From a virus, in the UHGV virus genome UHGV-1578124: DNA of 16,995 nt; one strand, given 5' to 3'. The stretch's first letter is position 1. Each line of letters begins with the position of its first letter. Both the position numbers and the translations under genes were made by a program. Positions 5,276 to 16,878 of this stretch are shown in pieces. The notes beneath the pieces are model-generated. The model was not told the DNA's origin. It saw only the letters and a list, made by a program, of their open reading frames with translations, and ran no database searches.

Positions 5276-5620
5276 CTATAGCTTCCTCACTAAATACTTT
5301 TTAAGTGGTGTCTTCGGTTTTTCAAAGACCTCAATAGAATTTATTTTAATACCCTCACCACGCATACCTGTGGATTGGTAGATATAGAACTCAAGCATCC
5401 CTATACTCTTAGCTGGCATATCATGCTTAACAAAAATGGTCACTGATTCTTTACTTTTCAGTATTACTGTACCATCTTTATACACAAGCTTATCAGGTTG
5501 TTTATAGTCAAGCATGTCGAACATCAGAAATAATCTTTGCTGACACATATCAAGTCTTGATGATAGGGATTCTTGTATATCTGCGAAATTCTTATAAACA
5601 ACTATGTGGAGCTTAAGCAT
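5276..5620 (-). CDS. hypothetical protein
   Basis: ORF 5276-5626; the second ATG (M3) has better Shine-Dalgarno spacing (AGAGA, 8 nt) than the first. Confidence 0.55.
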   Translation of the reverse strand: MLKLHIVVYKNFADIQESLSSRLDMCQQRLFLMFDMLDYKQPDKLVYKDGTVILKSKESVTIFVKHDMPAKSIGMLEFYIYQSTGMRGEGIKINSIEVFEKPKTPLKKYLVRKL

Positions 5621-5906
5621 CTGCATATTCTCTGACGAAGAAGTAGTTGATTTTGTTATCAGATATCAGAAGGTCATAGCAAGTAATCTCAAACTTACTC
5701 TTTTCAGCATCATAGCTTGTATATGGCTCAGAAACTTGCTTTATTGATACCTTCGGGTTATTAGGGTTTAAAAGGCCACCATAAAGTTTCTTAATGGCCT
5801 TTGTTACTACACCCCAGATAACATCATCAGTCAGTTCTTCGTACAGGTCAAAATCAGCTTCATAGCTGAAGTCATTAATTGGAAAGATAACCTGTACTCT
5901 ACTCAT
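5613..5906 (-). CDS. hypothetical protein (97 aa)
   Basis: ATG start; tightly packed in the operon. Confidence 0.55.
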   Translation of the reverse strand: MSRVQVIFPINDFSYEADFDLYEELTDDVIWGVVTKAIKKLYGGLLNPNNPKVSIKQVSEPYTSYDAEKSKFEITCYDLLISDNKINYFFVREYADA

Positions 5907-10074: not shown

Positions 10075-10085
10075 TTTAAAAAGGT

Positions 10086-10152: not shown

Positions 10153-11568
10153 ATGAGCGAATTATTTAACCACGCAAAATTACATGCTGGTTTGACTGAA
10201 AATGGTGCTGTTAACCATCTGACCTCAATGTCTGCCTTGGTAGACTTTTATAAGGCTGCTGGTTCAAGCCGTAACTACCCAGAGACTCTACCAAATCTGT
10301 TTTACAAAGCTCTGCGAGAAGATATCGATGTAGCGGTTCGAATCTTACTTCATATGCGAGATGCACGAGAAGGTATGGGAGAACGTAAAGCATTCAGAAC
10401 TGTCCTCTCAGAATCTATCAGAACCAACATACTTGATGAGTTCCAAGTTCTGCGTATCATGGCTAAGATTTCTGAACTAGGTCGTTATGATGACTTCAAA
10501 ATCTTCGTAGGTACTCGTTACGAGACTGATGCTTTCAAGCACATTGAGCAAGGATTGTTAGACCCAAATACTTCAGCGTTAGCTGCTAAGTGGTTGCCAA
10601 GGGTTAAGAAGCGTCACATGAATTTTGTAAAGCGTTTCTGCAAGTTTGCAAATCTAAGCCAGAAAGAGTATCGTCTGATGTTATCAGCACTGTCAGATAC
10701 CGTAGAGCAAAAGATTTCTGCAAATGAGTTTGGTGAGATTGATTACAGCAAGCTTCCTTCACTGGCTGCTGCACGTTATCAGAAATTGTTCACACGAAAA
10801 GGTGGAGAACGTTATGCAGAGTATGTAAAAGCTCTGACAGAGGGTACTACCAAGATTAACGCTGGTGCTGTTTACCCATATGATATCACCAAAGCTGTGA
10901 AGTACGGTCGTAGTGAAGTGGCTAATGAGCAATGGAAAGCACTGCCAAACTGGATGAAGGATGGTGAAAACATTCTTTGCATGACTGACGTATCAGGCTC
11001 TATGACGTGTGAACGTCACGGTTCTGTAGACGCTCTTGATATTGGTGTATCTTTGGCGTTATACGTCGCAGAACGCAATACAGGGTGTTTTAAAGATGAG
11101 TTAATGGTTTACTCCACAAATCCATTCTTTATCACTCTAAGTGGCTCTCTGAAGAATCGTATGGCTCAGGTCATGTCACATGTAGAGTATGGTTCAACAA
11201 ACCTTCAAGCTGCTTTTGACAGGATTCTTGAAATTGGTAAAAGAAATAACTTGACTCAAGATGCAATGCCACGTAAGCTTATCATCTTCTCTGACATGCA
11301 GTTTAACTCTGTTGATGGTCAGCGTGGTAATACTAACTTCGAAGCAATTCGTCGTAAGTATGAAGAATCAGGTTATGAAATGCCTCAGTTGGTATTCTGG
11401 TATCTGGCAAATCGTGGTGGTAACTGCGAAGTGTCTATTAAGGATAACGGAGTAGCAATGGTTTCAGGGTTCTCTCCAGCTACATTAAAGGCTCTACTTG
11501 GTGGTGAGAAGTTTGACCCAATCAGCGTAATGCTAAAAGCAGTAATGTCTGAACGTTACGATTGGTAA
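10153..11568 (+). CDS. vWA-domain protein with ~270-aa N-terminal helical domain
   Basis: ATG (MSELFNH...) with GAGAGAG upstream; the track ORF starts earlier at 10084. MIDAS-like D-V-S-G-S-M near residue 280, then downstream T and D positions consistent with a vWA fold. Confidence 0.75.
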   Translation: MSELFNHAKLHAGLTENGAVNHLTSMSALVDFYKAAGSSRNYPETLPNLFYKALREDIDVAVRILLHMRDAREGMGERKAFRTVLSESIRTNILDEFQVLRIMAKISELGRYDDFKIFVGTRYETDAFKHIEQGLLDPNTSALAAKWLPRVKKRHMNFVKRFCKFANLSQKEYRLMLSALSDTVEQKISANEFGEIDYSKLPSLAAARYQKLFTRKGGERYAEYVKALTEGTTKINAGAVYPYDITKAVKYGRSEVANEQWKALPNWMKDGENILCMTDVSGSMTCERHGSVDALDIGVSLALYVAERNTGCFKDELMVYSTNPFFITLSGSLKNRMAQVMSHVEYGSTNLQAAFDRILEIGKRNNLTQDAMPRKLIIFSDMQFNSVDGQRGNTNFEAIRRKYEESGYEMPQLVFWYLANRGGNCEVSIKDNGVAMVSGFSPATLKALLGGEKFDPISVMLKAVMSERYDW

Positions 11569-11586: not shown

Positions 11587-11615
11587 TTGACAATGTTGTT
11601 GATACCCTGTAAGAT
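11587..11615 (+). promoter_or_regulatory. sigma70-like promoter TTGACA-17-TAAGAT
   Basis: Hexamers at 11587-11592 and 11610-11615; near-duplicate of the element at 13619. Confidence 0.5.
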
Positions 11616-11677
11616 GTTCTACATCGAAACGGAAAAGAGTTTTTCTAAAAGATTTTCAAAATGTTTTAAAAAACCTC

Positions 11678-11707
11678 TTGACAAACACTAAAAAATAATG
11701 TTATAGT
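11678..11707 (+). promoter_or_regulatory. sigma70-like promoter TTGACA-18-TATAGT, ~27 nt before the first tRNA
   Basis: Hexamers at 11678-11683 and 11702-11707. Confidence 0.55.
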
Positions 11708-11733: not shown

Positions 11734-11813
11734 CTCCGTTTAGCTCAGTTTGGTTTAGCAGCACTTGCTTTGGGAGCAAGGGGTCGAGGGTTCAAATCCT
11801 TCAACGGAGACCA
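11734..11813 (+). tRNA. tRNA-Pro (anticodon TGG)
   Basis: Acceptor CTCCGTT/AACGGAG; anticodon stem CTTGC/GCAAG, loop TTTGGGA; T-arm GAGGG-TTCAAAT-CCTTC; discriminator A; CCA encoded. Confidence 0.85.
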
Positions 11814-11819
11814 AATTAT

Positions 11820-11897
11820 GTTCCAGTAGACAAATTGGTAAAGTCACCACACTTTCAATGTGGAGTTTTGAGGGTTCAAGTCCCTTCTGGAACGCCA
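11820..11897 (+). tRNA. tRNA-Glu (anticodon TTC)
   Basis: Acceptor GTTCCAG/CTGGAAC; anticodon stem CCACA/TGTGG, loop CTTTCAA; T-loop TTCAAGT; discriminator G; CCA encoded. Confidence 0.8.
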
Positions 11898-11901
11898 AAT
11901 T

Positions 11902-11974
11902 TGACAGAAGACCAAATACAGCAAACAACTTTTACTTTTCGCGCATAGAAAACATAAAAAGCTTGGTCTGGTCA
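11902..11974 (+). ncRNA. structured spacer element E1 (bulged two-helix family)
   Basis: Outer helix TGAC (11902-05) / GTCA (11971-74); inner helix AGACCAA (11909-15) / TTGGTCT (11963-69); unpaired AGA opposite G. Confidence 0.55.
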
Positions 11975-11982
11975 TTAAGAAT

Positions 11983-12059
11983 CGCGGGTATAGAGAAAGG
12001 GCGTCTCACATGTCTCATTAGCATGGCAACGGTTGGTTCGACTCCAACACCCGCCTCCA
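11983..12059 (+). tRNA. tRNA with CAT anticodon (Met, Ile2 or initiator)
   Basis: Acceptor CGCGGGT/ACCCGCC with C1-C72 mismatch; D-stem GAGA/TCTC; anticodon stem CATGT/GCATG, loop CTCATTA; T-arm GTTGG-TTCGACT-CCAAC; discriminator U; CCA encoded. Confidence 0.65.
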
Positions 12060-12062
12060 AAT

Positions 12063-12130
12063 TTACAGAAGGCCGTTTACAGCAATTCAAACAATTTTAT
12101 CGGAAAATTAAAATGAATACGGTCTGGTAA
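12063..12130 (+). ncRNA. structured spacer element E2
   Basis: Outer TTAC (12063-66) / GTAA (12127-30); inner AGGCCGT (12070-76) / ACGGTCT (12119-25) with one G-U pair; AGA opposite G. Confidence 0.55.
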
Positions 12131-12140
12131 TGTTAAACAT

Positions 12141-12217
12141 GGTTAGGAAGCACATAAGGCATGTGCGGTCGGCTGTTAACCGAATGGCACAGGGTTCGAA
12201 TCCCTGACTAACCGCCA
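12141..12217 (+). tRNA. tRNA-Asn (anticodon GTT)
   Basis: Acceptor GGTTAGG/ACTAACC; D-stem GCAC/GTGC; anticodon loop CTGTTAA; T-arm CAGGG-TTCGAAT-CCCTG; discriminator G; CCA. Confidence 0.8.
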
Positions 12218-12284
12218 AATTTGGGAGAGAAGCGATTGCTCACCGATTTGTAAGGTGCAAGTCCTTAGCCTGAATAGAATAAAA

Positions 12285-12373
12285 TGCGTCGTTATCCCGT
12301 AGATGGAAGCGGTGGTGACTGTAAATCACTTGTCATTACGACTCGGTAGGTTCGACTCCTTCACGGCGCACCA
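12285..12373 (+). tRNA. tRNA-Tyr (anticodon GTA), type II
   Basis: Acceptor GCGTCGT/ACGGCGC; anticodon stem GGTGA/TCACT, loop CTGTAAA; long variable arm with GTC/GAC stem; T-loop TTCGACT; discriminator A; CCA. Confidence 0.8.
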
Positions 12374-12379
12374 AATAAA

Positions 12380-12456
12380 GGTTATGTAGTTTAACTGGTC
12401 AAAATACTCCCCTGTCACGGGAGATGATGAGGGTTCGAATCCCTTCGTAACCGCCA
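12380..12456 (+). tRNA. tRNA-Asp (anticodon GTC)
   Basis: Acceptor GGTTATG/CGTAACC; anticodon stem CTCCC/GGGAG, loop CTGTCAC; T-arm GAGGG-TTCGAAT-CCCTT; discriminator G; CCA. Confidence 0.85.
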
Positions 12457-12514
12457 AATTTGAGAGGGCTTTTTAGCCCCTCCCTTAAAGAGTTCTTTCG
12501 AGTATTCTTTAAAG

Positions 12515-12594
12515 GAGCAGAAGACCAAATTCAGCAAGCAACAAAAATATTTCAAGCCAATTTAATTTGAAAAATTTAAAACTTGGTCTGGTTC
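12515..12594 (+). ncRNA. structured spacer element E3
   Basis: Outer GAGC (12515-18) / GTTC (12591-94) with one G-U; inner AGACCAA (12522-28) / TTGGTCT (12583-89); AGA opposite G. Confidence 0.5.
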
Positions 12595-12602
12595 CAACAA
12601 TT

Positions 12603-12734
12603 TTACAGAAGACCGTTTACAGCAAACAATAAACAATCTATTTCTCTTATAAAGAAAAGGCGAAGGTTCGAATCCTTCACACGTTACGGCGTGTTGGTGT
12701 AATGGAAGCACTTAAGATAAATACGGTCTGGTAA
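12603..12734 (+). ncRNA. structured spacer element E4 with internal tRNA-like module
   Basis: Outer TTAC (12603-06) / GTAA (12731-34); inner AGACCGT (12610-16) / ACGGTCT (12723-29). Apical region 12662-12711 holds a canonical T-arm, an ACACG/CGTGT hairpin and a D-arm-like GTG-TAATGGAAG-CAC. Confidence 0.55.
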
Positions 12735-12738
12735 TCCT

Positions 12739-12871
12739 CTTTGCAGTGACTTATGGAGCTAATATGTCGTCCCATGAGTGCCGATGAGTTTCTTGAGCAT
12801 GATTCTAGATTAGCTTACTAAGAGACAACTCTACAAACCCTTTAGCAAGGTTTGCGTAGGTTACTGCAAAG
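12739..12871 (+). ncRNA. candidate structured RNA closed by a long-range helix
   Basis: CTTTGCAGTGAC (12739-50) pairs with GTTACTGCAAAG (12860-71). Interior holds two overlapping mini-ORFs (12764-12787 MSSHECR, 12784-12813 MSFLSMILD), the first with GGAG 6 nt upstream. Confidence 0.35.
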
Positions 12872-12881
12872 ATGATTTAAT

Positions 12882-12957
12882 GGAAGTGTAGCAGAATGGT
12901 GATGCGGCAGACTTTTAATCTGACAGGCGACGGGTTCGAATCCCTCCACTTCTACCA
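12882..12957 (+). tRNA. tRNA-Lys (anticodon TTT)
   Basis: Acceptor GGAAGTG/CACTTCT; anticodon stem CAGA/TCTG, loop CTTTTAA; weak T-arm (GACGG...CCCTC); discriminator A; CCA. Confidence 0.7.
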
Positions 12958-12962
12958 AATTC

Positions 12963-13029
12963 GCCCTTAACTGAAGAACACATGCGCGGCTGGAGACACC
13001 CACTCAATCAGTTCTTCTACAAAGGGCAA
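12963..13029 (+). ncRNA. large imperfect hairpin
   Basis: GCCCTT + GAAGAAC (12963-79) pair with GTTCTTC + AAGGGC (13011-29) around a 4x4 internal loop; ~31-nt apical loop; no U-tract follows. Confidence 0.4.
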
Positions 13030-13037
13030 CTTATTAC

Positions 13038-13114
13038 GGTTCAGTCGCAGATAAGGTAATGCAAGGGTTTCATAAGCCCTATGAATGTGGGTTCGATTCC
13101 CACTTGAACCTCCA
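13038..13114 (+). tRNA. tRNA-Met (anticodon CAT; could be Ile2 or initiator)
   Basis: Acceptor GGTTCAG/TTGAACC; anticodon stem AGGGT/GCCCT, loop TTCATAA; T-arm GTGGG-TTCGATT-CCCAC; discriminator U; CCA. Confidence 0.75.
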
Positions 13115-13116
13115 AT

Positions 13117-13191
13117 TGTGGGTTAGCATAAATGGTAATGCAAACGGCTGATAACCGTTAGAAGAGGGTTCGATACCCTCACCTACAACCA
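13117..13191 (+). tRNA. tRNA-Ile (anticodon GAT)
   Basis: Acceptor TGTGGGT/ACCTACA; D-stem GCAT/ATGC; anticodon stem AACGG/CCGTT, loop CTGATAA; T-arm GAGGG-TTCGATA-CCCTC; discriminator A; CCA. Confidence 0.8.
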
Positions 13192-13206
13192 AATTCAATA
13201 AAGTTG

Positions 13207-13235
13207 TTGATATTGAGATGTGACTACTTTATAGT
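13207..13235 (+). promoter_or_regulatory. sigma70-like promoter TTGATA-17-TATAGT
   Basis: Hexamers at 13207-13212 and 13230-13235; would drive the ~200-nt non-tRNA segment before tRNA-Arg(TCT). Confidence 0.5.
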
Positions 13236-13241
13236 AACCTT

Positions 13242-13403
13242 AGTTTTCGTTAGCGTAGCGTCTATTTTGCAAACTTAAAAATAAATGCAAACGATAATGT
13301 TTTTCTGGCAGTAGCTTAATAGGCTAAACACCAGTGAGGTCTTCCAACCCCTCATCAAAGAATTTGGCGTACTAGCCCACGGTATGATTAATAAGGTGGG
13401 CAT
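13242..13403 (+). ncRNA. candidate small RNA / transcribed spacer
   Basis: Lies downstream of the 13207 promoter; hairpins TAGC/GCTA (13312-26), TGAGG/CCTCA (13334-53), GCCCAC/GTGGGC (13375-13401); no tRNA fold and no ORF. Confidence 0.3.
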
Positions 13404-13440
13404 CTTTAAGGGCTTTCTAAGAGAGTCTTTAAAGATTAAT

Positions 13441-13517
13441 GCACCCTTAGTTCAATTGGATAGAGCAACGGTCTTCTAAATCGTTAGTTACAGGTTCGAA
13501 TCCTGTAGGGTGTGCCA
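13441..13517 (+). tRNA. tRNA-Arg (anticodon TCT)
   Basis: Acceptor GCACCCT/AGGGTGT; D-stem GTTC/GAGC; anticodon stem ACGGT/ATCGT, loop CTTCTAA; T-arm ACAGG-TTCGAAT-CCTGT; discriminator G; CCA. Confidence 0.85.
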
Positions 13518-13618
13518 ATTAGTTAGCAGATTACTTAGACGACCTTAGCGGGTCTTCCTGTAGGGAGGTGGTCTGTATCTCATGTTTTCCAGAACATGTA
13601 AATAATCTGAGAAGGGGC

Positions 13619-13647
13619 TTGACAGTGTTGTGATAATACGGTAAGCT
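13619..13647 (+). promoter_or_regulatory. sigma70-like promoter TTGACA-17-TAAGCT
   Basis: Hexamers at 13619-13624 and 13642-13647; the block TTGACAgTGTTGTGATA...TAAG matches the 11587 element. Confidence 0.45.
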
Positions 13648-13659
13648 TCGAATTATAGT

Positions 13660-13742
13660 ATGGGACGATGTTAAGACACTAAGGCATGTGCGTAAGCCTC
13701 CAAAACTTACTCAAAGGGGTTCGATTCCTCCGTCCCATGCCA
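13660..13742 (+). tRNA. tRNA-Trp (anticodon CCA), atypical 80 nt
   Basis: Acceptor ATGGGAC/GTCCCAT (perfect); anticodon loop CTCCAAA; T-loop TTCGATT; discriminator G; CCA. There are about 7 extra nt between the acceptor stem and the D-arm. Confidence 0.6.
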
Positions 13743-13755
13743 AAGTCTCATTAGG

Positions 13756-13843
13756 GGTAGGTAGCGGCTAATGGTAGCCAAACTGTCTTGAAAACAGTTG
13801 CCACTGTAGAGATACGGTGAGGGTTCGACTCCTTTACTTACCG
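13756..13843 (+). tRNA. tRNA-Ser (anticodon TGA), type II
   Basis: Acceptor GGTAGGT/ACTTACC; anticodon stem ACTGT/ACAGT, loop CTTGAAA; variable-arm hairpin CTGTA-GAGA-TACGG; T-loop TTCGACT; discriminator G; 3' tail reads CCT, not CCA. Confidence 0.75.
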
Positions 13844-13923
13844 CCTAATAAGATTTAATTCCCGCGCTCGTCGAACAAGCTCGGTTTTTACTCGTGTATT
13901 GGCGTACACGGCACGACTATAAA

Positions 13924-13938
13924 ACACCTAGTAGGTGT
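13924..13938. promoter_or_regulatory. 15-bp palindrome ACACCTA-g-TAGGTGT (candidate protein-binding site)
   Basis: Perfect 7-bp inverted arms around a central G, in the 250-nt tRNA-free spacer 13847-14093. Confidence 0.4.
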
Positions 13939-14093
13939 CACGGAGAAGAGATAGTATCAAGCTCTCCAAAGGTTCTAGTCACCGGATTGAATAAGACTAT
14001 ATAAAGACTGTTTAGGTCTTTTTAGAGAATTGCTGAGGCATTTGATACCATTGTTGCTTTGGCGTCTTAGCAGTTCTCTACAAAGATTTAATG

Positions 14094-14171
14094 GGAGATT
14101 GACGGTAATTGGTAAACCTACCATCCTTAGAAGTTGGTGTTTGAGGGTTCGAATCCCTTGTCTCCTACCAA
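14094..14171 (+). tRNA. tRNA with anticodon TAG (Leu codon CUA), type I
   Basis: Acceptor GGGAGAT/GTCTCCT (G-U pairs at both ends); anticodon stem CCATC/GTTGG, loop CTTAGAA; T-arm GAGGG-TTCGAAT-CCCTT; discriminator A; CCA; no long variable arm. Confidence 0.6.
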
Positions 14172-14178
14172 ATTAATG

Positions 14179-14254
14179 CAGGTGTAGCAAAATGGTTATG
14201 CGGCTGACTCTTAATCAGTAAGACGATGGGTTCAATTCCCTCCACCTGTACCAA
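14179..14254 (+). tRNA. tRNA-Lys (anticodon CTT)
   Basis: Acceptor GCAGGTG/CACCTGT; anticodon stem GCTGA/TCAGT, loop CTCTTAA; same weak T-arm as Lys(TTT); discriminator A; CCA. Confidence 0.7.
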
Positions 14255-14260
14255 ATATCG

Positions 14261-14336
14261 GGGATGTAGTTTACATGGTTAAAACATAAGTTTTGCAAAC
14301 TTAAGTACAGGGTTCAATTCCCTGCTTCTCCACCAA
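14261..14336 (+). tRNA. tRNA-Ala (anticodon TGC)
   Basis: Acceptor GGGGATG/CTTCTCC with a G3-U70 wobble (the known Ala identity pair); D-stem GTTT/AAAC; anticodon stem TAAGT/ACTTA, loop TTTGCAA; T-arm CAGGG-TTCAATT-CCCTG; discriminator A; CCA. Confidence 0.85.
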
Positions 14337-14342
14337 TTAGTG

Positions 14343-14417
14343 CATCCATAGTTTAAACGGGAAAATTACAGTCTTCCAAACTGAGGTTGAGGGTTCGATT
14401 CCCTCTGGATGCTCCAA
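14343..14417 (+). tRNA. tRNA-Gly (anticodon TCC)
   Basis: Acceptor GCATCCA/TGGATGC (perfect); anticodon loop CTTCCAA; T-arm GAGGG-TTCGATT-CCCTC; discriminator U (as in Gly tRNAs); CCA. Confidence 0.85.
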
Positions 14418-14423
14418 ATAATG

Positions 14424-14500
14424 CTGCTTTCGTATAATTGGCTATTACACATCCCTTGTAAGGATGGAGATGCGGGTTCAAGTCCTGTGAGCAGCACCAA
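14424..14500 (+). tRNA. tRNA-Thr (anticodon TGT)
   Basis: Acceptor GCTGCTT/GAGCAGC; anticodon stem CATCC/GGATG, loop CTTGTAA; T-loop TTCAAGT; discriminator A; CCA. Confidence 0.8.
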
Positions 14501-14504
14501 TTTG

Positions 14505-14588
14505 AGGTCAAGTGAAAGGCCGCTTGAGTCAACTGAGACCGTAGCAAATTCCACGGAGTTGAGTTAGCGGCACAACTTCAGACCTCTT
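14505..14588 (+). ncRNA. nested-helix structured element between tRNA-Thr and tRNA-Val
   Basis: Closing helix GAGGTC (14505-10) / GACCTC (14583-88), second helix GCCGC/GCGGC, internal direct repeat TTGAGT x2; followed by a CTTTTAAAG motif. Confidence 0.4.
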
Positions 14589-14594
14589 TTAAAG

Positions 14595-14669
14595 CTCGCT
14601 TAGTTTATACGGTAAAGCCCCATCCTTACAAGTTGGTGAAGAAGGTTCAAGTCCTTCAGCGAGTACCAA
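14595..14669 (+). tRNA. tRNA-Val (anticodon TAC)
   Basis: Acceptor GCTCGCT/AGCGAGT; D-stem GTTT/AAGC; anticodon stem CCATC/GTTGG, loop CTTACAA; T-arm GAAGG-TTCAAGT-CCTTC; discriminator A; CCA. Confidence 0.8.
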
Positions 14670-14670
14670 G

Positions 14671-14748
14671 TTCCAGTATCCCAATTGGCAGAGGATGCAA
14701 GCTCAAACCTTGTATTAGTGACGGTTCGAATCCGTCTTGGAACACCAA
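14671..14748 (+). tRNA. tRNA with anticodon CAA (Leu codon UUG), type I
   Basis: Acceptor GTTCCAG/TTGGAAC; anticodon stem GCAAG/CTTGT, loop CTCAAAC; T-arm GACGG-TTCGAAT-CCGTC; discriminator A; CCA; 75 nt. Confidence 0.6.
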
Positions 14749-14762
14749 ATTAGGAGATTCCT

Positions 14763-14975
14763 ATGAAGCCTTATGGTAGACATGGTAAAGTTGAAATTGC
14801 AAGTTGTGGTTGCTGTGCTTCTCACGATGGTGAAGAAGATTACTACAAGTGGCGTACAGACCATCGTAGACGCTTTCTCAGAAGAGATAAGAAGAAAGCT
14901 AGACAGGAATCTCAAAAGAATATTGCAGAATTAGTTCAAACGGATAGAGCAGCAGCCTACGAAGTTGTTTGTTAG
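14763..14975 (+). CDS. small basic cysteine-containing protein (70 aa)
   Basis: AGGAG 5 nt upstream of ATG; contains C-G-C-C; its last ~17 codons run through the 5' two-thirds of tRNA-Arg(ACG), so the true 3' end is uncertain. Confidence 0.45.
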   Translation: MKPYGRHGKVEIASCGCCASHDGEEDYYKWRTDHRRRFLRRDKKKARQESQKNIAELVQTDRAAAYEVVC

Positions 14976-15001
14976 GGGTTCGAATCCCTTATTCTGCACC
15001 A
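14925..15001 (+). tRNA. tRNA-Arg (anticodon ACG)
   Basis: Acceptor GCAGAAT/ATTCTGC (perfect); D-stem GTTC/GAGC; anticodon stem GCAGC/GTTGT, loop CTACGAA; T-arm AGGGG-TTCGAAT-CCCTT; discriminator A; CCA. Confidence 0.85.
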
Positions 15002-15019
15002 ATTTTAGAAGGTAATTAT

Positions 15020-15247
15020 ATGCGTAAACTCATTATTGAAAGGCATAAAGATGCTGACAAGATTGCAACAACACAAGTTGGGGACACTGACTTCATTCTT
15101 GTAGGTTGGAAATGTGACCCAATAGCAGTTATGAAGGTTGTTCATGGTTTTGCAGGAATTGAATTTAATCAAATCATATTTGAAACGCTATTACCAGAAA
15201 ATCAGGATACGTGTAATAACGCATATGTCCTGACAAGAGTTCGTTAG
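15020..15247 (+). CDS. small protein (75 aa), paralog of 15292-15519
   Basis: AGAAGG ~7 nt upstream of ATG (MRKLIIERH...); the track ORF starts earlier inside the tRNA. Shares blocks with the next gene (GDT-FI-VGWK-DP, FAG-E, QVIFET-LPEN-DTCNNAY-LTRV). Confidence 0.65.
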   Translation: MRKLIIERHKDADKIATTQVGDTDFILVGWKCDPIAVMKVVHGFAGIEFNQIIFETLLPENQDTCNNAYVLTRVR

Positions 15248-15273
15248 GGGTTCGAATCCCTTATTCTGCACCA
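15244..15273 (+). pseudogene. tRNA 3' fragment (T-arm + acceptor 3' strand + CCA)
   Basis: A 31-nt stretch (GTTAGGGGTTCGAATCCCTTATTCTGCACCA, from 15243) is identical to the 3' end of tRNA-Arg(ACG) at 14971-15001; no matching 5' acceptor strand, D-arm or anticodon arm upstream. Confidence 0.65.
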
Positions 15274-15291
15274 AATTTAAAAGGGTAACTT

Positions 15292-15519
15292 ATGTTTAAA
15301 CTCATAGTTGAAAAACACCCAGAAGATGACAAGCTTGAAACAGGGAGATTTGGAGATACTTTCTTTATCAGAGTTGGCTGGAAAGCTGACCCATTAGAAG
15401 TTAGAAAGATTGTCTACAACTTTGCTGGTTTGGAATTAAAGCAAGTCATCTTTGAAACAATGTTGCCAGAAAATAAAGATACATGCAATAACGCATATAT
15501 TCTTACAAGAGTTAGTTAG
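15292..15519 (+). CDS. small protein (75 aa), paralog of 15020-15247
   Basis: AAAGGG upstream of ATG; stop codon TAG (15517-19) overlaps the first nucleotides of tRNA-Gln(TTG). Confidence 0.65.
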   Translation: MFKLIVEKHPEDDKLETGRFGDTFFIRVGWKADPLEVRKIVYNFAGLELKQVIFETMLPENKDTCNNAYILTRVS

Positions 15520-15593
15520 GGGATTAGTTTACAAGGTTAAAACCTCGGTCTTTGAAATCGAAGAAGTTGGTTCAATTCCAACATCCCCCGCCA
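15518..15593 (+). tRNA. tRNA-Gln (anticodon TTG)
   Basis: Acceptor AGGGGAT/ATCCCCC with unpaired 1-72; D-stem GTTT/AAAC; anticodon stem TCGGT/ATCGA, loop CTTTGAA; T-arm GTTGG-TTCAATT-CCAAC; discriminator G; CCA. Confidence 0.75.
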
Positions 15594-15595
15594 AT

Positions 15596-15674
15596 GCTCC
15601 ATTACTCCAATTGGCAGAGAGGCCAGACTTAAAATCTGTGTTATGTATCGGTTCGAATCCGATATGGAGTACCA
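15596..15674 (+). tRNA. tRNA with anticodon TAA (Leu codon UUA), type I
   Basis: Acceptor GCTCCAT/ATGGAGT; anticodon stem CAGA/TCTG, loop CTTAAAA; T-arm ATCGG-TTCGAAT-CCGAT; discriminator A; CCA; 76 nt with a 7-nt variable region. Confidence 0.6.
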
Positions 15675-15680
15675 AATATT

Positions 15681-15756
15681 AGCAGTGTAGCATAACTGGC
15701 AATGCTCCAGCCTCTGAAGCTGAAAGATTAAGGTTCAAATCCTTACGCTGCTGCCA
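15681..15756 (+). tRNA. tRNA-Gln (anticodon CTG)
   Basis: Acceptor AGCAGTG/CGCTGCT; D-stem GCAT/ATGC; anticodon loop CTCTGAA; T-arm TAAGG-TTCAAAT-CCTTA; discriminator G; CCA. Confidence 0.75.
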
Positions 15757-15787
15757 CTTCTAAGGGTTCTTACGAGAGTCCTTAAAT

Positions 15788-15864
15788 GTGGCCTTATCAT
15801 AAACGGATAATGACCCATGCTGTGAACATGGTCTATACGGGTTCGATTCCCGTAGGTCACCCCA
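15788..15864 (+). tRNA. tRNA-His (anticodon GTG)
   Basis: Acceptor GTGGCCT/AGGTCAC; D-stem TCAT/ATGA; anticodon stem CCATG/CATGG, loop CTGTGAA; T-arm ACGGG-TTCGATT-CCCGT; discriminator C; CCA. Position -1 is T, not the usual encoded G. Confidence 0.8.
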
Positions 15865-15871
15865 ATTCAAT

Positions 15872-15947
15872 AGCTCAATTAGCTTATATGGTTAAAGCGC
15901 GTGTCTGAAAAACATGAGAACAGGGTTCAAATCCCGATGGGCTACCA
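15872..15947 (+). tRNA. tRNA-Phe (anticodon GAA)
   Basis: Acceptor AGCTCAA/ATGGGCT; anticodon stem CGTGT/ACATG, loop CTGAAAA; T-loop TTCAAAT with a weak 3-4 bp T-stem; discriminator A; CCA. Confidence 0.65.
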
Positions 15948-15963
15948 ATTTTATAGGTGCATA

Positions 15964-16698
15964 ATGAAAGAGATGACAGGACAAGGTAAAGAGATTTTCA
16001 GTCTCCTTAAATCCGGTAACGGGTTCTCTAACCCTCTTATTACTGGTGCAGCAGTTCTTGGTGGTACAGTTGCCGCTTCTCAGTCATTAGTAACTTCTAT
16101 TGGTTCTGTATCAGACCCAGCTACCCAGCAAATTCTTATTGCTGCTGGCTTGACAACTGCCTTACTAAGCAGCTTTACAACAAGCCTTGGTAGCACCACT
16201 TCAACGACAACCACTTTAACTGACTATGGACAGAAGTCTGTAGATGAGTTTTCACAACGTATGCAAGTAGCTAAAGGTTACTCTAACGTTATGGGAGCAG
16301 CAGGTGAACAAGTCGGTTGTACACCGTTTAGTGGAATCATGGGAGTTGCTACAGAGTACGGTAACAAAGCTATGGATTTGATTAATACATCCATAGACGC
16401 TGTAAATGGCGTTCTAAGCGATTTACAAGATGCGATTGATAAAGGACTAGACACCATCTCTGAACTCGCTACACAGGCTGTTACAGTGATTAATGAGGGT
16501 ATGGCAAAGATTACCGCCTACGCTAATGAAGTGGCTCAGATGATTGCAGATGAAGCAGCCCTGATTGCTGACTACCTTAAAACGAATATTAATGGTTTTC
16601 TTGCTAATGTCTTACCAGATTGGTTTGATGATGCTTGTAAAACTGGTGTGATTGATACAATCGCAACTCCAGAGATGAAAGATGCTCTAAACAAATAA
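15964..16698 (+). CDS. hypothetical Ser/Thr/Ala/Gly-rich protein (244 aa)
   Basis: The track ORF starts at 15901 inside tRNA-Phe. First ATG after the tRNA (MKEMTGQ...) has AGGTG 4 nt upstream. Confidence 0.6.
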   Translation: MKEMTGQGKEIFSLLKSGNGFSNPLITGAAVLGGTVAASQSLVTSIGSVSDPATQQILIAAGLTTALLSSFTTSLGSTTSTTTTLTDYGQKSVDEFSQRMQVAKGYSNVMGAAGEQVGCTPFSGIMGVATEYGNKAMDLINTSIDAVNGVLSDLQDAIDKGLDTISELATQAVTVINEGMAKITAYANEVAQMIADEAALIADYLKTNINGFLANVLPDWFDDACKTGVIDTIATPEMKDALNK

Positions 16699-16701
16699 TT
16701 T

Positions 16702-16794
16702 GGAAGATTAACCCTAAAAGGTAAGGGAGTAGTTTGCTAAACTGCCAGTAACCGAGAAATCGGCGTACCAGTTCAAGTCTGGTATCTTCCTCCA
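16702..16794 (+). tRNA. tRNA-Ser (anticodon GCT), type II
   Basis: Acceptor GGAAGAT/ATCTTCC (perfect); D-stem CCC/GGG; anticodon stem GTAGT/ACTGC, loop TTGCTAA; variable-arm hairpin CCGA-GAAA-TCGG; T-arm ACCAG-TTCAAGT-CTGGT; discriminator U; CCA. Confidence 0.8.
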
Positions 16795-16801
16795 AATTAA
16801 T

Positions 16802-16878
16802 GTGTCGGTGGCAGAAATGGATTATGCGCCTGTCTGCAAAACAGGTATATAAGGGTTCAAGTCCCTTCCGATACTCCA
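16802..16878 (+). tRNA. tRNA-Cys (anticodon GCA)
   Basis: Acceptor GTGTCGG/CCGATAC; anticodon stem CCTGT/ACAGG, loop CTGCAAA; T-arm AAGGG-TTCAAGT-CCCTT; discriminator U (as in Cys tRNAs); CCA. Confidence 0.8.

Follow-up and report, generated by a model that had tools for sequence, protein, structure and literature searches.

The stretch of DNA analysed here, which we call the window, comprises 16,995 nt of the UHGV virus genome UHGV-1578124 and comes from a Felix-O1-like myovirus of the Ounavirinae. Its + strand carries a gene for a 471-aa protein with a predicted Ro60 fold (10153–11568), followed by 25 tRNA genes (ARAGORN; 11734–16878, all on the + strand) in a region that is 93.7% identical to the tRNA region of Citrobacter phage BSwM KMM2. 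Four related elements, E1–E4, lie among the tRNA genes, 334–1166 nt 3′ of the protein gene and on the same strand. A first-pass annotation, made from the sequence alone, had proposed that they are paralogous structured RNAs placed in tRNA spacers. We describe their anatomy, their relatives in other viruses and their association with the upstream gene, from which it appears probable that they encode small noncoding RNAs (ncRNAs) serving that protein as Y RNAs serve Ro60.

Closing structure of the four elements

All four elements are closed in the same way. An outer helix is followed by an asymmetric internal loop, in which a 5′ AGA faces a lone 3′ G, and then by a 7-bp inner helix, which we refer to as the handle helix. 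Straight after the 5′ strand of this helix comes an unpaired N-T-W-CAGCAA (N-U-W-CAGCAA in RNA), a shared feature that the first-pass annotation had not recorded. E1 (11902–11974), in the spacer between tRNA-Glu and tRNA-Met, is a short form that scores 46.2 bits (E = 7e-9) with the covariance model R1 described below. Its outer helix pairs TGAC (11902–11905) with GTCA (11971–11974), the AGA loop (11906–11908) stands opposite G11970, the inner helix pairs AGACCAA (11909–11915) with TTGGTCT (11963–11969), and the linker ATA leads into CAGCAA (11919–11924). E2 (12063–12130; 40.8 bits) is a short form between tRNA-Met and tRNA-Asn; its outer helix is TTAC (12063–12066) with GTAA (12127–12130), and its inner helix, AGGCCGT (12070–12076) with ACGGTCT (12119–12125), contains one G-U pair and precedes CAGCAA at 12080–12085. 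The long spacer between tRNA-Asp and tRNA-Lys holds the remaining two. E3 (12514–12595; 47.0 bits), a short form that follows two hairpins 3′ of tRNA-Asp, has the outer helix (G)GAGC (12514–12518) with GTTC(C) (12591–12595), the inner helix AGACCAA (12522–12528) with TTGGTCT (12583–12589), and CAGCAA at 12532–12537. E4 (12603–12734) is a long form, supported by its folds and by a consensus structure of nine orthologues, in which TTAC (12603–12606) pairs with GTAA (12731–12734), AGACCGT (12610–12616) pairs with ACGGTCT (12723–12729), and CAGCAA occupies 12620–12625.

The coordinates, the pairings of both helices, the AGA/G loop and the G-U pair of E2 agree exactly with those first proposed, in four elements out of four. 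Minimum-free-energy folds of the + strand (RNAfold) recover both helices in every copy and leave CAGCAA single-stranded in E2–E4. The 5′ strands read ACAGAAGACC or ACAGAAGGCC, while that of E3 reads GCAGAAGACC; the 5′ motif ACAGAAGRCCRWW is found four times in the window, only at E1–E4, against an expectation of 0.39, and none of 200 shuffles reaches four. Three other readings of this DNA were tried and rejected: that the elements are terminators, because there is no U run 3′ of the helix; that they function from the minus strand, because all matches to the family lie on the strand of the gene; and that a mechanically called 121-aa open reading frame with a TTG start (11765–12130) is a gene, because it crosses three tRNA genes.

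Conservation of the handle and its linkage to the protein gene

In order to look for relatives of the elements, a descriptor consisting of a 7-bp helix, a 3-nt linker and CAGCAA was applied to a sample of 80 viral contigs encoding relatives of the protein. Most loci contained one to five matching elements, beside the gene and on its strand, and their helix sequences were altogether different (AGGATCG, TGGTTCC, AGGCTTC, AGGAAGG and AGAGCAC are examples). Positions that the descriptor leaves free were conserved nevertheless: among 101 unique matches the first helix position was A in 74 and the second was G in 88, the middle base of the linker was U in 89, and the base directly 3′ of the 3′ strand was G in 87. 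CAGCAA itself is the most conserved sequence of the family. The handle can thus be described as a 7-bp helix that opens with A-G-R on its 5′ strand and closes with Y-C-U on its 3′ strand, flanked by unpaired A residues on the 5′ side and a G on the 3′ side. As judged from these alignments, the family-wide signature is the inner helix together with the unpaired UWCAGCAA and the flanking A...G.

Counting pairs on our alignment A2 would have been circular, as its sequences had been chosen for pairing, and the count was replaced by a control in which helices were swapped and by an examination of matches outside the training set. In the first of these, which is blind to pairing, 79 of the 180 N7-NTN-CAGCAA sites on the gene's strand had a perfectly complementary 7-mer 12–200 nt downstream; about 10 were expected when helices were swapped among the sites (maximum 19), and the opposite strand gave 9 of 102. 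In the second, R1, which was built from 33 short forms, found 30 non-training matches, of which 27 paired at seven of seven positions and 3 at six of seven. Altogether 39 distinct helix sequences were collected, nearly all of them fully paired. The compensatory changes that the first-pass annotation had seen among the four paralogues extend to more than 100 related loci, and covariation on this scale points to selection on the helix. We are highly confident, on this comparative evidence, that E1–E4 form part of a genuine RNA family that is under selection and linked to the protein gene.

Short inverted repeats around a variable cargo could also be the footprints of mobile elements (cassettes resembling miniature inverted-repeat transposable elements, or scars of homing endonucleases) in the tRNA region, and HNH endonuclease genes do interrupt this region in some relatives. 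Terminal repeats of that kind keep their sequence, whereas the arms of the handle differ among its 39 helix sequences and stay complementary; furthermore, the strand bias is absolute and no target-site duplications were seen. We regard this origin as extremely improbable. The conservation of CAGCAA raises a different alternative, in which the elements are base-pairing small RNAs (sRNAs), with the motif as a seed for host or phage RNAs containing UUGCUG and the helix as nothing but a stabilising clamp. That the motif is predicted to be single-stranded in E2–E4, besides being the sequence the family conserves best, would suit such a role. Nevertheless, retention of a 6-nt seed across several host phyla presupposes a single universal target, of which there is no sign, and the strict linkage to one protein gene would find no explanation; an sRNA function of this kind seems to us very improbable. 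Because the spacing between helix and motif is invariant and the bases at the helix end are conserved, recognition by a protein is indicated instead.

The outer helix has a narrower distribution. In 35 of 35 copies from nine Ounavirinae genomes, which provide the homologous spacers for comparison, at least four contiguous pairs surround the AGA/G loop, in six helix sequences, and there is one clean compensatory switch, from TTAC/GTAA to TTGC/GCAA among the orthologues of E2. Beyond the Ounavirinae, from the distant relative L007 on, the outer helix is missing, and the unpaired A-A 5′ of the handle helix and the G(U) 3′ of it remain. This comparison suggests that the outer helix of 4–5 bp is an addition specific to the Felix-O1-like Ounavirinae, which clamps the handle. 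Since the flanks stay where the clamp is absent, the internal loop of E1–E4 can be read as the conserved helix flank of the family lying under a lineage-specific clamp.

Matches to R1 are strikingly bound to the strand of the gene. In viral contigs and isolated phages (823 kb), all 61 matches at E ≤ 1e-3 and 90 of the 94 at E ≤ 1 lie on it, as do all 51 matches at E ≤ 0.01 in those GTDB genome contigs that carry the gene, nearly all of them within ∼700 nt. Elements of 35–41 bits abut the gene, usually two to four in tandem, in phage isolates infecting Bacillus, Listeria, Staphylococcus, Campylobacter, Mycobacterium and Enterococcus; the hosts of handle loci include these genera and enterobacteria. 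With two models and a relaxed descriptor, which added only three long forms, about two-thirds of the ∼86 loci from viral contigs and phages showed an element; in the genome collection, 34 of 80 loci have one. Pairs of gene and handle RNA (29–37.7 bits) were also seen in contigs of metagenome-assembled genomes labelled Pacearchaeota (L116 and L149, in DPANN bins), and the Prevotella megaphage Lak-B2 has a weak match (23.6 bits) just 5′ of the gene; these cases may be viral contigs put in the wrong bin.

The placement of E1–E4 in tRNA spacers, as first described, invites the view that they serve as structural spacers, or are what is left of decayed tRNAs, only aiding the processing of the tRNA precursor and unrelated to the protein. 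They sit exactly between tRNAs, E4 has tRNA-like arms (see below), and other spacers of the array hold stable hairpins. This view is countered by tRNA-free loci in which the element lies 23–34 nt past the stop codon of the gene, and by the sharing of an unpaired CAGCAA and a covarying helix among phages of at least five named host phyla. It is countered also by a natural control. Pectobacterium phage Wc4-1, another of the Ounavirinae, retains the neighbouring DUF5681 gene and, identically arranged, a large tRNA cluster, but a search of its whole 92-kb genome found no Ro-like gene (best tblastn E 4.3), and its tRNA cluster contains no element; R1 gives only a 28-nt match of 19.8 bits (E = 0.013) outside the cluster, and the second model, R2, gives none. 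Erwinia phage Coenus is the same at this locus, with DUF5681 and a tRNA cluster and without the Ro-like gene and the handle RNAs. The tRNA spacers of both phages are mostly just 7–15 nt long. Because gene and elements are absent together despite the tRNA cluster in Wc4-1, and likewise at this locus in Coenus, we conclude that the elements track the protein gene and not the tRNAs, and a role as tRNA spacers is accordingly quite unlikely.

The Ro60-fold protein, the variable modules and the relation to Y RNAs

The first-pass annotation had placed a vWA protein gene immediately upstream of the elements; the protein turns out to be more than a vWA domain. Homologues of 471 aa place the true start at Met24 (10153) of the frame listed from a GTG at 10084. 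The product, which is 100% identical to a protein of Shigella phage ESh21, matches Pfam DUF2828 and DUF7788 and PHROG 850 (‘RNA-binding protein’). An AlphaFold2 model from a 42-sequence alignment (predicted local distance difference test score, pLDDT, 88.8; predicted template-modelling score, pTM, 0.88) has an N-terminal ring of HEAT repeats and a C-terminal vWA domain with an intact MIDAS (an adhesion site dependent on metal ions; DxSxS...T...D), whose residues D279, S281, S283, T349 and D381 are invariant in the alignment. When the model was compared with the PDB by Foldseek, the ten best chains were all Ro60/TROVE proteins matched over their full length (E 1.5e-9 to 1.9e-7, probability 1.00). 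They belong to eight entries (9kop, 1yvr, 2i91, 9nfa, 9l5y, 1yvp, 2nvo and 9nep) from Xenopus, human, Deinococcus and Thermus phage phiLo, with TM scores of 0.37–0.68 (0.55–0.68 without 2nvo), and the matches that follow are isolated vWA domains only. Sequence searches are far less telling: phmmer against the PDB found nothing, and a profile search reached Ro60 at E ∼1, in the MIDAS region only. Since the model is confident, its top PDB matches are all Ro60 and the MIDAS is invariant, the ‘vWA protein’ can be taken as a predicted Ro60-fold protein of a sequence family apart from Pfam TROVE. It turns up in 710 phage records and over 3,000 protein clusters, and its gene recurs beside tRNA clusters and genes for RtcB, RNA ligase and CCA-adding enzyme. 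Individual neighbourhoods include an RtcB ligase and an HD phosphohydrolase in Listeria phage LP-048; an RNA ligase and a CCA-adding enzyme in Cronobacter phage GAP32, where no handle RNA was detected near the gene; and 22 tRNAs with a YlaK ribonuclease in Bacillus phage Thrax4.

What the handles enclose is variable. The apical modules of E1–E3 are 33–45 nt long, A/U-rich and weakly structured. E4, by comparison, is predicted to enclose a circularly permuted tRNA-like domain, made up of an anticodon/V-like hairpin (12641–12657, loop CUUAUAA), a canonical T arm (12662–12678, loop UUCGAAU), a closed acceptor-like stem (12679–12694) and a D arm (12696–12712, with GG in its loop); in the consensus structure of its nine orthologues, 8 of 31 pairs show compensatory changes. 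The Rfam tRNA model aligns with 12612–12686 at 30.9 bits by way of a false 5′ strand, the real arms being circularly permuted. The earlier statement that the elements are not tRNAs thus stands in so far as ARAGORN calls no tRNA gene in E1–E4, and needs amendment for E4, whose permuted domain strengthens the parallel with YrlA drawn below. The order of T arm, closed stem and D arm recurs inside handles of unrelated phages, and other long forms hold other conserved modules. In one relative (L042, 4728–4833) the handle surrounds a tRNA in the normal, non-permuted order (Rfam tRNA, 52.9 bits), so that handles can frame an apparently ordinary tRNA as cargo. The different modules of E1–E3, E4 and the other long forms suggest an architecture of constant handle and exchangeable cargo.

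This arrangement closely resembles that of Y RNAs, as the first-pass annotation had proposed from the constant closing helix and the variable apical module. YrlA and YrlB (RF02553), the bacterial partners of Rsr, adjoin a Ro60-type gene on the same strand, often several per locus; their 5′ and 3′ parts pair into a closing stem around a variable module, and in one RNA of each locus, YrlA, a tRNA-like domain has its V arm, T arm, closed acceptor stem and D arm in exactly the order of E4 (Chen et al. 2014, PMC4201824). YrlB lacks the tRNA-like domain, as do E1–E3, and a neighbourhood of RNA-repair genes is common to both systems. They differ in the protein, which here is DUF2828/DUF7788, in the proposed binding motif, which here is the A-G-R helix with UWCAGCAA rather than GNCGAAN0-1G, and in the position of the window's RNAs inside a tRNA array. 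At gathering thresholds Rfam reports only tRNAs in the window, and only tRNAs and one transfer-messenger RNA (tmRNA) in 13 related loci. Below threshold, its YrlA model matches inside handles of EfV12-phi1 (45.2 bits, E = 6e-7) and Samty (37.9 bits, E = 8e-5), and a further relative reaches 34.3 bits; the E-values are significant, yet all three scores fall under the RF02553 threshold of 69 bits, and the alignment examined in this set covers the tRNA-like part only, not the 5′ Rsr-binding motif of YrlA.

A phage precedent exists. Thermus phage phiLo encodes a Ro60-fold protein with two adjacent Y-like RNAs, Yrl1 and Yrl2, as here, and experiments have shown that this protein binds its RNAs and the host's PNPase (PMC12135203). 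Its structures are among the best matches to the window protein (9kop, E = 1.5e-9; 9l5y_A, E = 2.8e-8). It differs from the present system in that a canonical CGAA motif, placed in a bulge, served to select its RNAs, and its protein has only 16–18% identity to that of the window. Small stable RNAs of the phage T4 tRNA region, species 1 and 2 (rnaC and rnaD), likewise have no known function, lie among tRNA genes and are released by processing of the tRNA precursor; we know of no Ro-like protein associated with them, and the likeness is one of description only. Closer to the window, gp130 of the Felixounavirus Bas63 is described as Ro60-like by structure and as encoded directly upstream of tRNA genes, and its deletion leaves the phage more susceptible to ppl defence; no partner RNA was identified, the authors going no further than to suggest that Y RNAs might be among the annotated tRNA genes (bioRxiv 10.1101/2024.10.10.617714). 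From that description gp130 is apparently the orthologue of the window's gene. The Bas63 proposal concerns annotated tRNA genes, whereas our candidates are unannotated spacers, and it is the nearest precedent that we found: no paper or Rfam family was found that describes the handle RNAs or the UACAGCAA motif.

We conclude that E1–E4 are probably paralogous small ncRNA genes whose products act as dedicated partner RNAs, analogous to Y RNAs, of the protein encoded at 10153–11568. Their anatomy and covariation, the strict linkage to the gene in position and strand, and the joint absence of gene and elements in a relative were all computed here, as was the Ro60 fold; expression, binding and function are reasoned from these. 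By the same reasoning, the family would represent a second and far more widespread phage system of Ro-like protein and Y-like RNA, a variant of the Ro–Y RNA system that has a recognition handle of its own. Several findings weigh against this conclusion. Thermodynamic stability is unremarkable, with modest folding z-scores of −1.25 to −1.97 for E1–E4, and one genome is insufficient to establish selection; the case therefore rests on comparison across genomes. Neither of the canonical Ro-binding motifs, GGUCCGA of animals or GNCGAAN0-1G of bacteria, occurs in E1–E4, which have UWCAGCAA after the helix instead. Membership of the Rfam Y RNA families, raised in the first-pass annotation, was not borne out, as neither RF02553 nor RF00019 matches E1–E4 at E ≤ 10 and YrlA gave no match on E4 in a 150-nt search. 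Pfam TROVE (PF05731) does not match the protein, which is hit only by DUF2828 and DUF7788. With the canonical motif absent, Rfam scores below threshold and the protein outside Pfam TROVE, the system is better described as parallel to the Y RNAs than as a member of a curated Y RNA family. Moreover, between a quarter and a third of the viral and phage loci with the gene, GAP32 being an example, have no element detected by R1 and R2, and a k-mer search for an alternative motif in them found nothing; these loci may be explained in part by truncated contigs, diverged handles or elements elsewhere in the genome.

Lastly, adjacency to the gene is equally expected of a cis-acting site on the gene's own mRNA. 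The elements would then be protein-bound sites on the transcript of the Ro-like gene, such as autoregulatory hairpins, stabilisers or processing signals in an untranslated region, and the many copies lying 23–34 nt after the stop codon or 56–400 nt before the start, on the same strand, are typical of autoregulatory sites. In the window, however, two promoter-like sites and two tRNAs lie between the gene and E1. Elsewhere, tandem arrays of three to five elements, long forms with complete tRNA-like modules, the terminator-like hairpin that ends the array of Samty, and the lack of a U run after the element helix fit poorly with a regulatory site, and we consider such sites an unlikely explanation of the elements as a whole.

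If E1–E4 are partner RNAs, they would be co-transcribed with the tRNAs, starting from the promoter-like sites at 11587–11707, and excised by the same RNase P and 3′-end processing as the neighbouring tRNAs. The handle would then dock on the Ro-like ring, the helix acting as a probable 7-bp ruler between the A-G-R/Y-C-U-G helix base and the single-stranded CAGCAA. The variable module might gate the ring or tether factors, for example tRNA-handling enzymes or exoribonucleases such as PNPase, as in the complexes of Ro, Y RNA and PNPase. The recurrent RNA-repair and tRNA neighbours, taken with the ppl phenotype, point to surveillance, repair or protection of RNA, and especially of tRNA, during infection as a likely role, in the service of counter-defence.

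Ro60–Y RNA particles are a classic and poorly understood machine of RNA surveillance, and searches for them in bacteria and phages have looked only beside TROVE-annotated proteins and with the canonical motif. The present system would have its own RNA recognition code and swappable effector modules. Well-studied phages used in therapy or as models carry it, among them Felix O1-like phages, those of Listeria, Staphylococcus and Campylobacter, and the cluster L mycobacteriophages, and the handle RNAs offer concrete candidates for the RNA partner of gp130, the counter-defence gene of Bas63. They would also account for unannotated ‘spacers’ and probably spurious small open reading frames beside these genes. 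An instance is found in mycobacteriophage Samty (L082, 5459–5722), where a short handle RNA, a long one with a tRNA-like module and another short one, followed by the terminator-like hairpin, come after a gene annotated ‘Ro-like RNA binding protein’. The hypothetical coding sequence gp55 (5562–5756), which overlies these RNAs, is unlikely to be a true gene. For the related phage LeBron, a paper counts gp54, by its number the next after the Ro-like gp53, among the severely toxic genes. Enterococcus phage EfV12-phi1 (L089, 3190–3850) has four tandem handle RNAs 5′ of the gene, one of them with CAGCGA for CAGCAA; each is preceded by a conserved segment of ∼50 nt (GGTTTTG..CATAG.TCC/TTC....GCCGGAACAT-like) that may be a promoter or processing signal in repeated form.

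Resemblance to Dictyostelium Class I RNAs and other features of the array

Dicty_Class_I_RNA (RF01414) is the sole non-tRNA Rfam family that aligned repeatedly with the elements, always over its full model. Scores were 25.8 bits for E2, 21.2 for E4, 26.9 for the relative L062, and 23.1 and 22.9 for elements of a Listeria and a Staphylococcus phage; none of the elements reaches the threshold of 41.5 bits. Class I RNAs are ∼60 nt long, start A-A-G, have a 6-bp covarying terminal stem, end C-U-G-U and are variable in the remainder; an unpaired 11-nt CCUUACAGCAA follows the 5′ strand, and they are reported to be unique to Dictyostelia (Kjellin et al. 2021, PMC7919456). In both groups a short stem joins the ends, a conserved G follows A, the 3′ end is C-U-G(U) and an unpaired motif akin to (CC)UUACAGCAA comes after the 5′ strand; in both, too, the stem covaries, the motif is fixed and the rest varies. 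The stem features of Class I RNAs recur in the phage handle as a 7-bp helix with G at position 2 (88 of 101) and a C-U end followed by G (87 of 101), and the copies of the window read AG(A/G)CC...GGUCU-G. At the position of CCUUACAGCAA, E2 and E4 have CCGUUUACAGCAA, E1 has CCAAAUACAGCAA and E3 has CCAAAUUCAGCAA, while some relatives (L016 and L018) have CCUUACAGCAA exactly; the cmscan alignment of E2 and E4 to RF01414 places a one-nucleotide deletion between helix and motif, and the Class I definition otherwise comes close to the consensus of the phage family.

The two groups differ in other respects. Class I genes are dispersed, with their own DUSE promoter ∼60 nt upstream, whereas the phage locus has bacterial-type promoter-like sites, and the known direct binder of Class I RNAs is the RRM protein Rnp1A (PMC7919456). 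The resemblance may reflect homology or convergence; common ancestry, or a partner protein of a common type, is a lead and not a result. A speculative extension, in which we place limited confidence, is that handle RNAs and Class I RNAs are one family, the ligand of a DUF2828/DUF7788 branch of Ro60-like proteins with uncharacterised members in plants and other eukaryotes; the occurrence of DUF2828 proteins in plants is known from the literature. Class I RNAs might then be the ‘Y RNAs’ of a second Ro lineage spanning viruses and eukaryotes, possibly through exchange between amoebae that feed on bacteria and the phages of those bacteria. If such a partner were shared, the mechanism of the Class I RNAs, a question of 20 years' standing (the RNAs have been known since 2004), would become experimentally approachable, and a helix with CAGCAA would be a candidate ligand for the uncharacterised eukaryotic DUF2828 proteins.

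The remaining features concern the array itself. Two sigma-70-like promoter candidates, both by consensus match only, occupy the + strand between the Ro-like gene and the array of tRNAs and ncRNAs: TTGACA-17-TAAGAT (11587–11615, 10 of 12 matches), and TTGACA-18-TATAGT with an extended TG (11678–11707, 11 of 12 matches), 27 nt 5′ of the first tRNA. The two neighbouring hairpins between tRNA-Asp and E3 (12457–12514; z −3.95) scan as terminator-like, so that E3 and E4 may form a separate processing or transcription unit. A degenerate tRNA at 12288–12368, where relatives annotate tRNA-Tyr, scores 22.8 bits in Rfam (sub-threshold) without an ARAGORN call; the region 12218–12379 is possibly a decaying or unusual tRNA-Tyr gene with ∼70 nt of extra 5′ sequence. 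From within tRNA-Ile into the next spacer (13134–13319) there is a match to the Rfam permuted tmRNA model of 33.8 bits (threshold 47; E = 1.4e-4).

Two further spacers hold stable structures that lack the handle. The 147 nt between E4 and tRNA-Lys (12735–12881) fold into a long irregular hairpin, an unannotated structured RNA with ∼20 closing base pairs and no CAGCAA handle, at −47.1 kcal/mol (z −4.1). The 80 nt between tRNA-Lys and tRNA-Met (12958–13037) form a two-tier hairpin, GCCCUU...AAGGGC around GAAGAAC...GUUCUUC (z −5.1); in each case none of 200 shuffles was equally stable.

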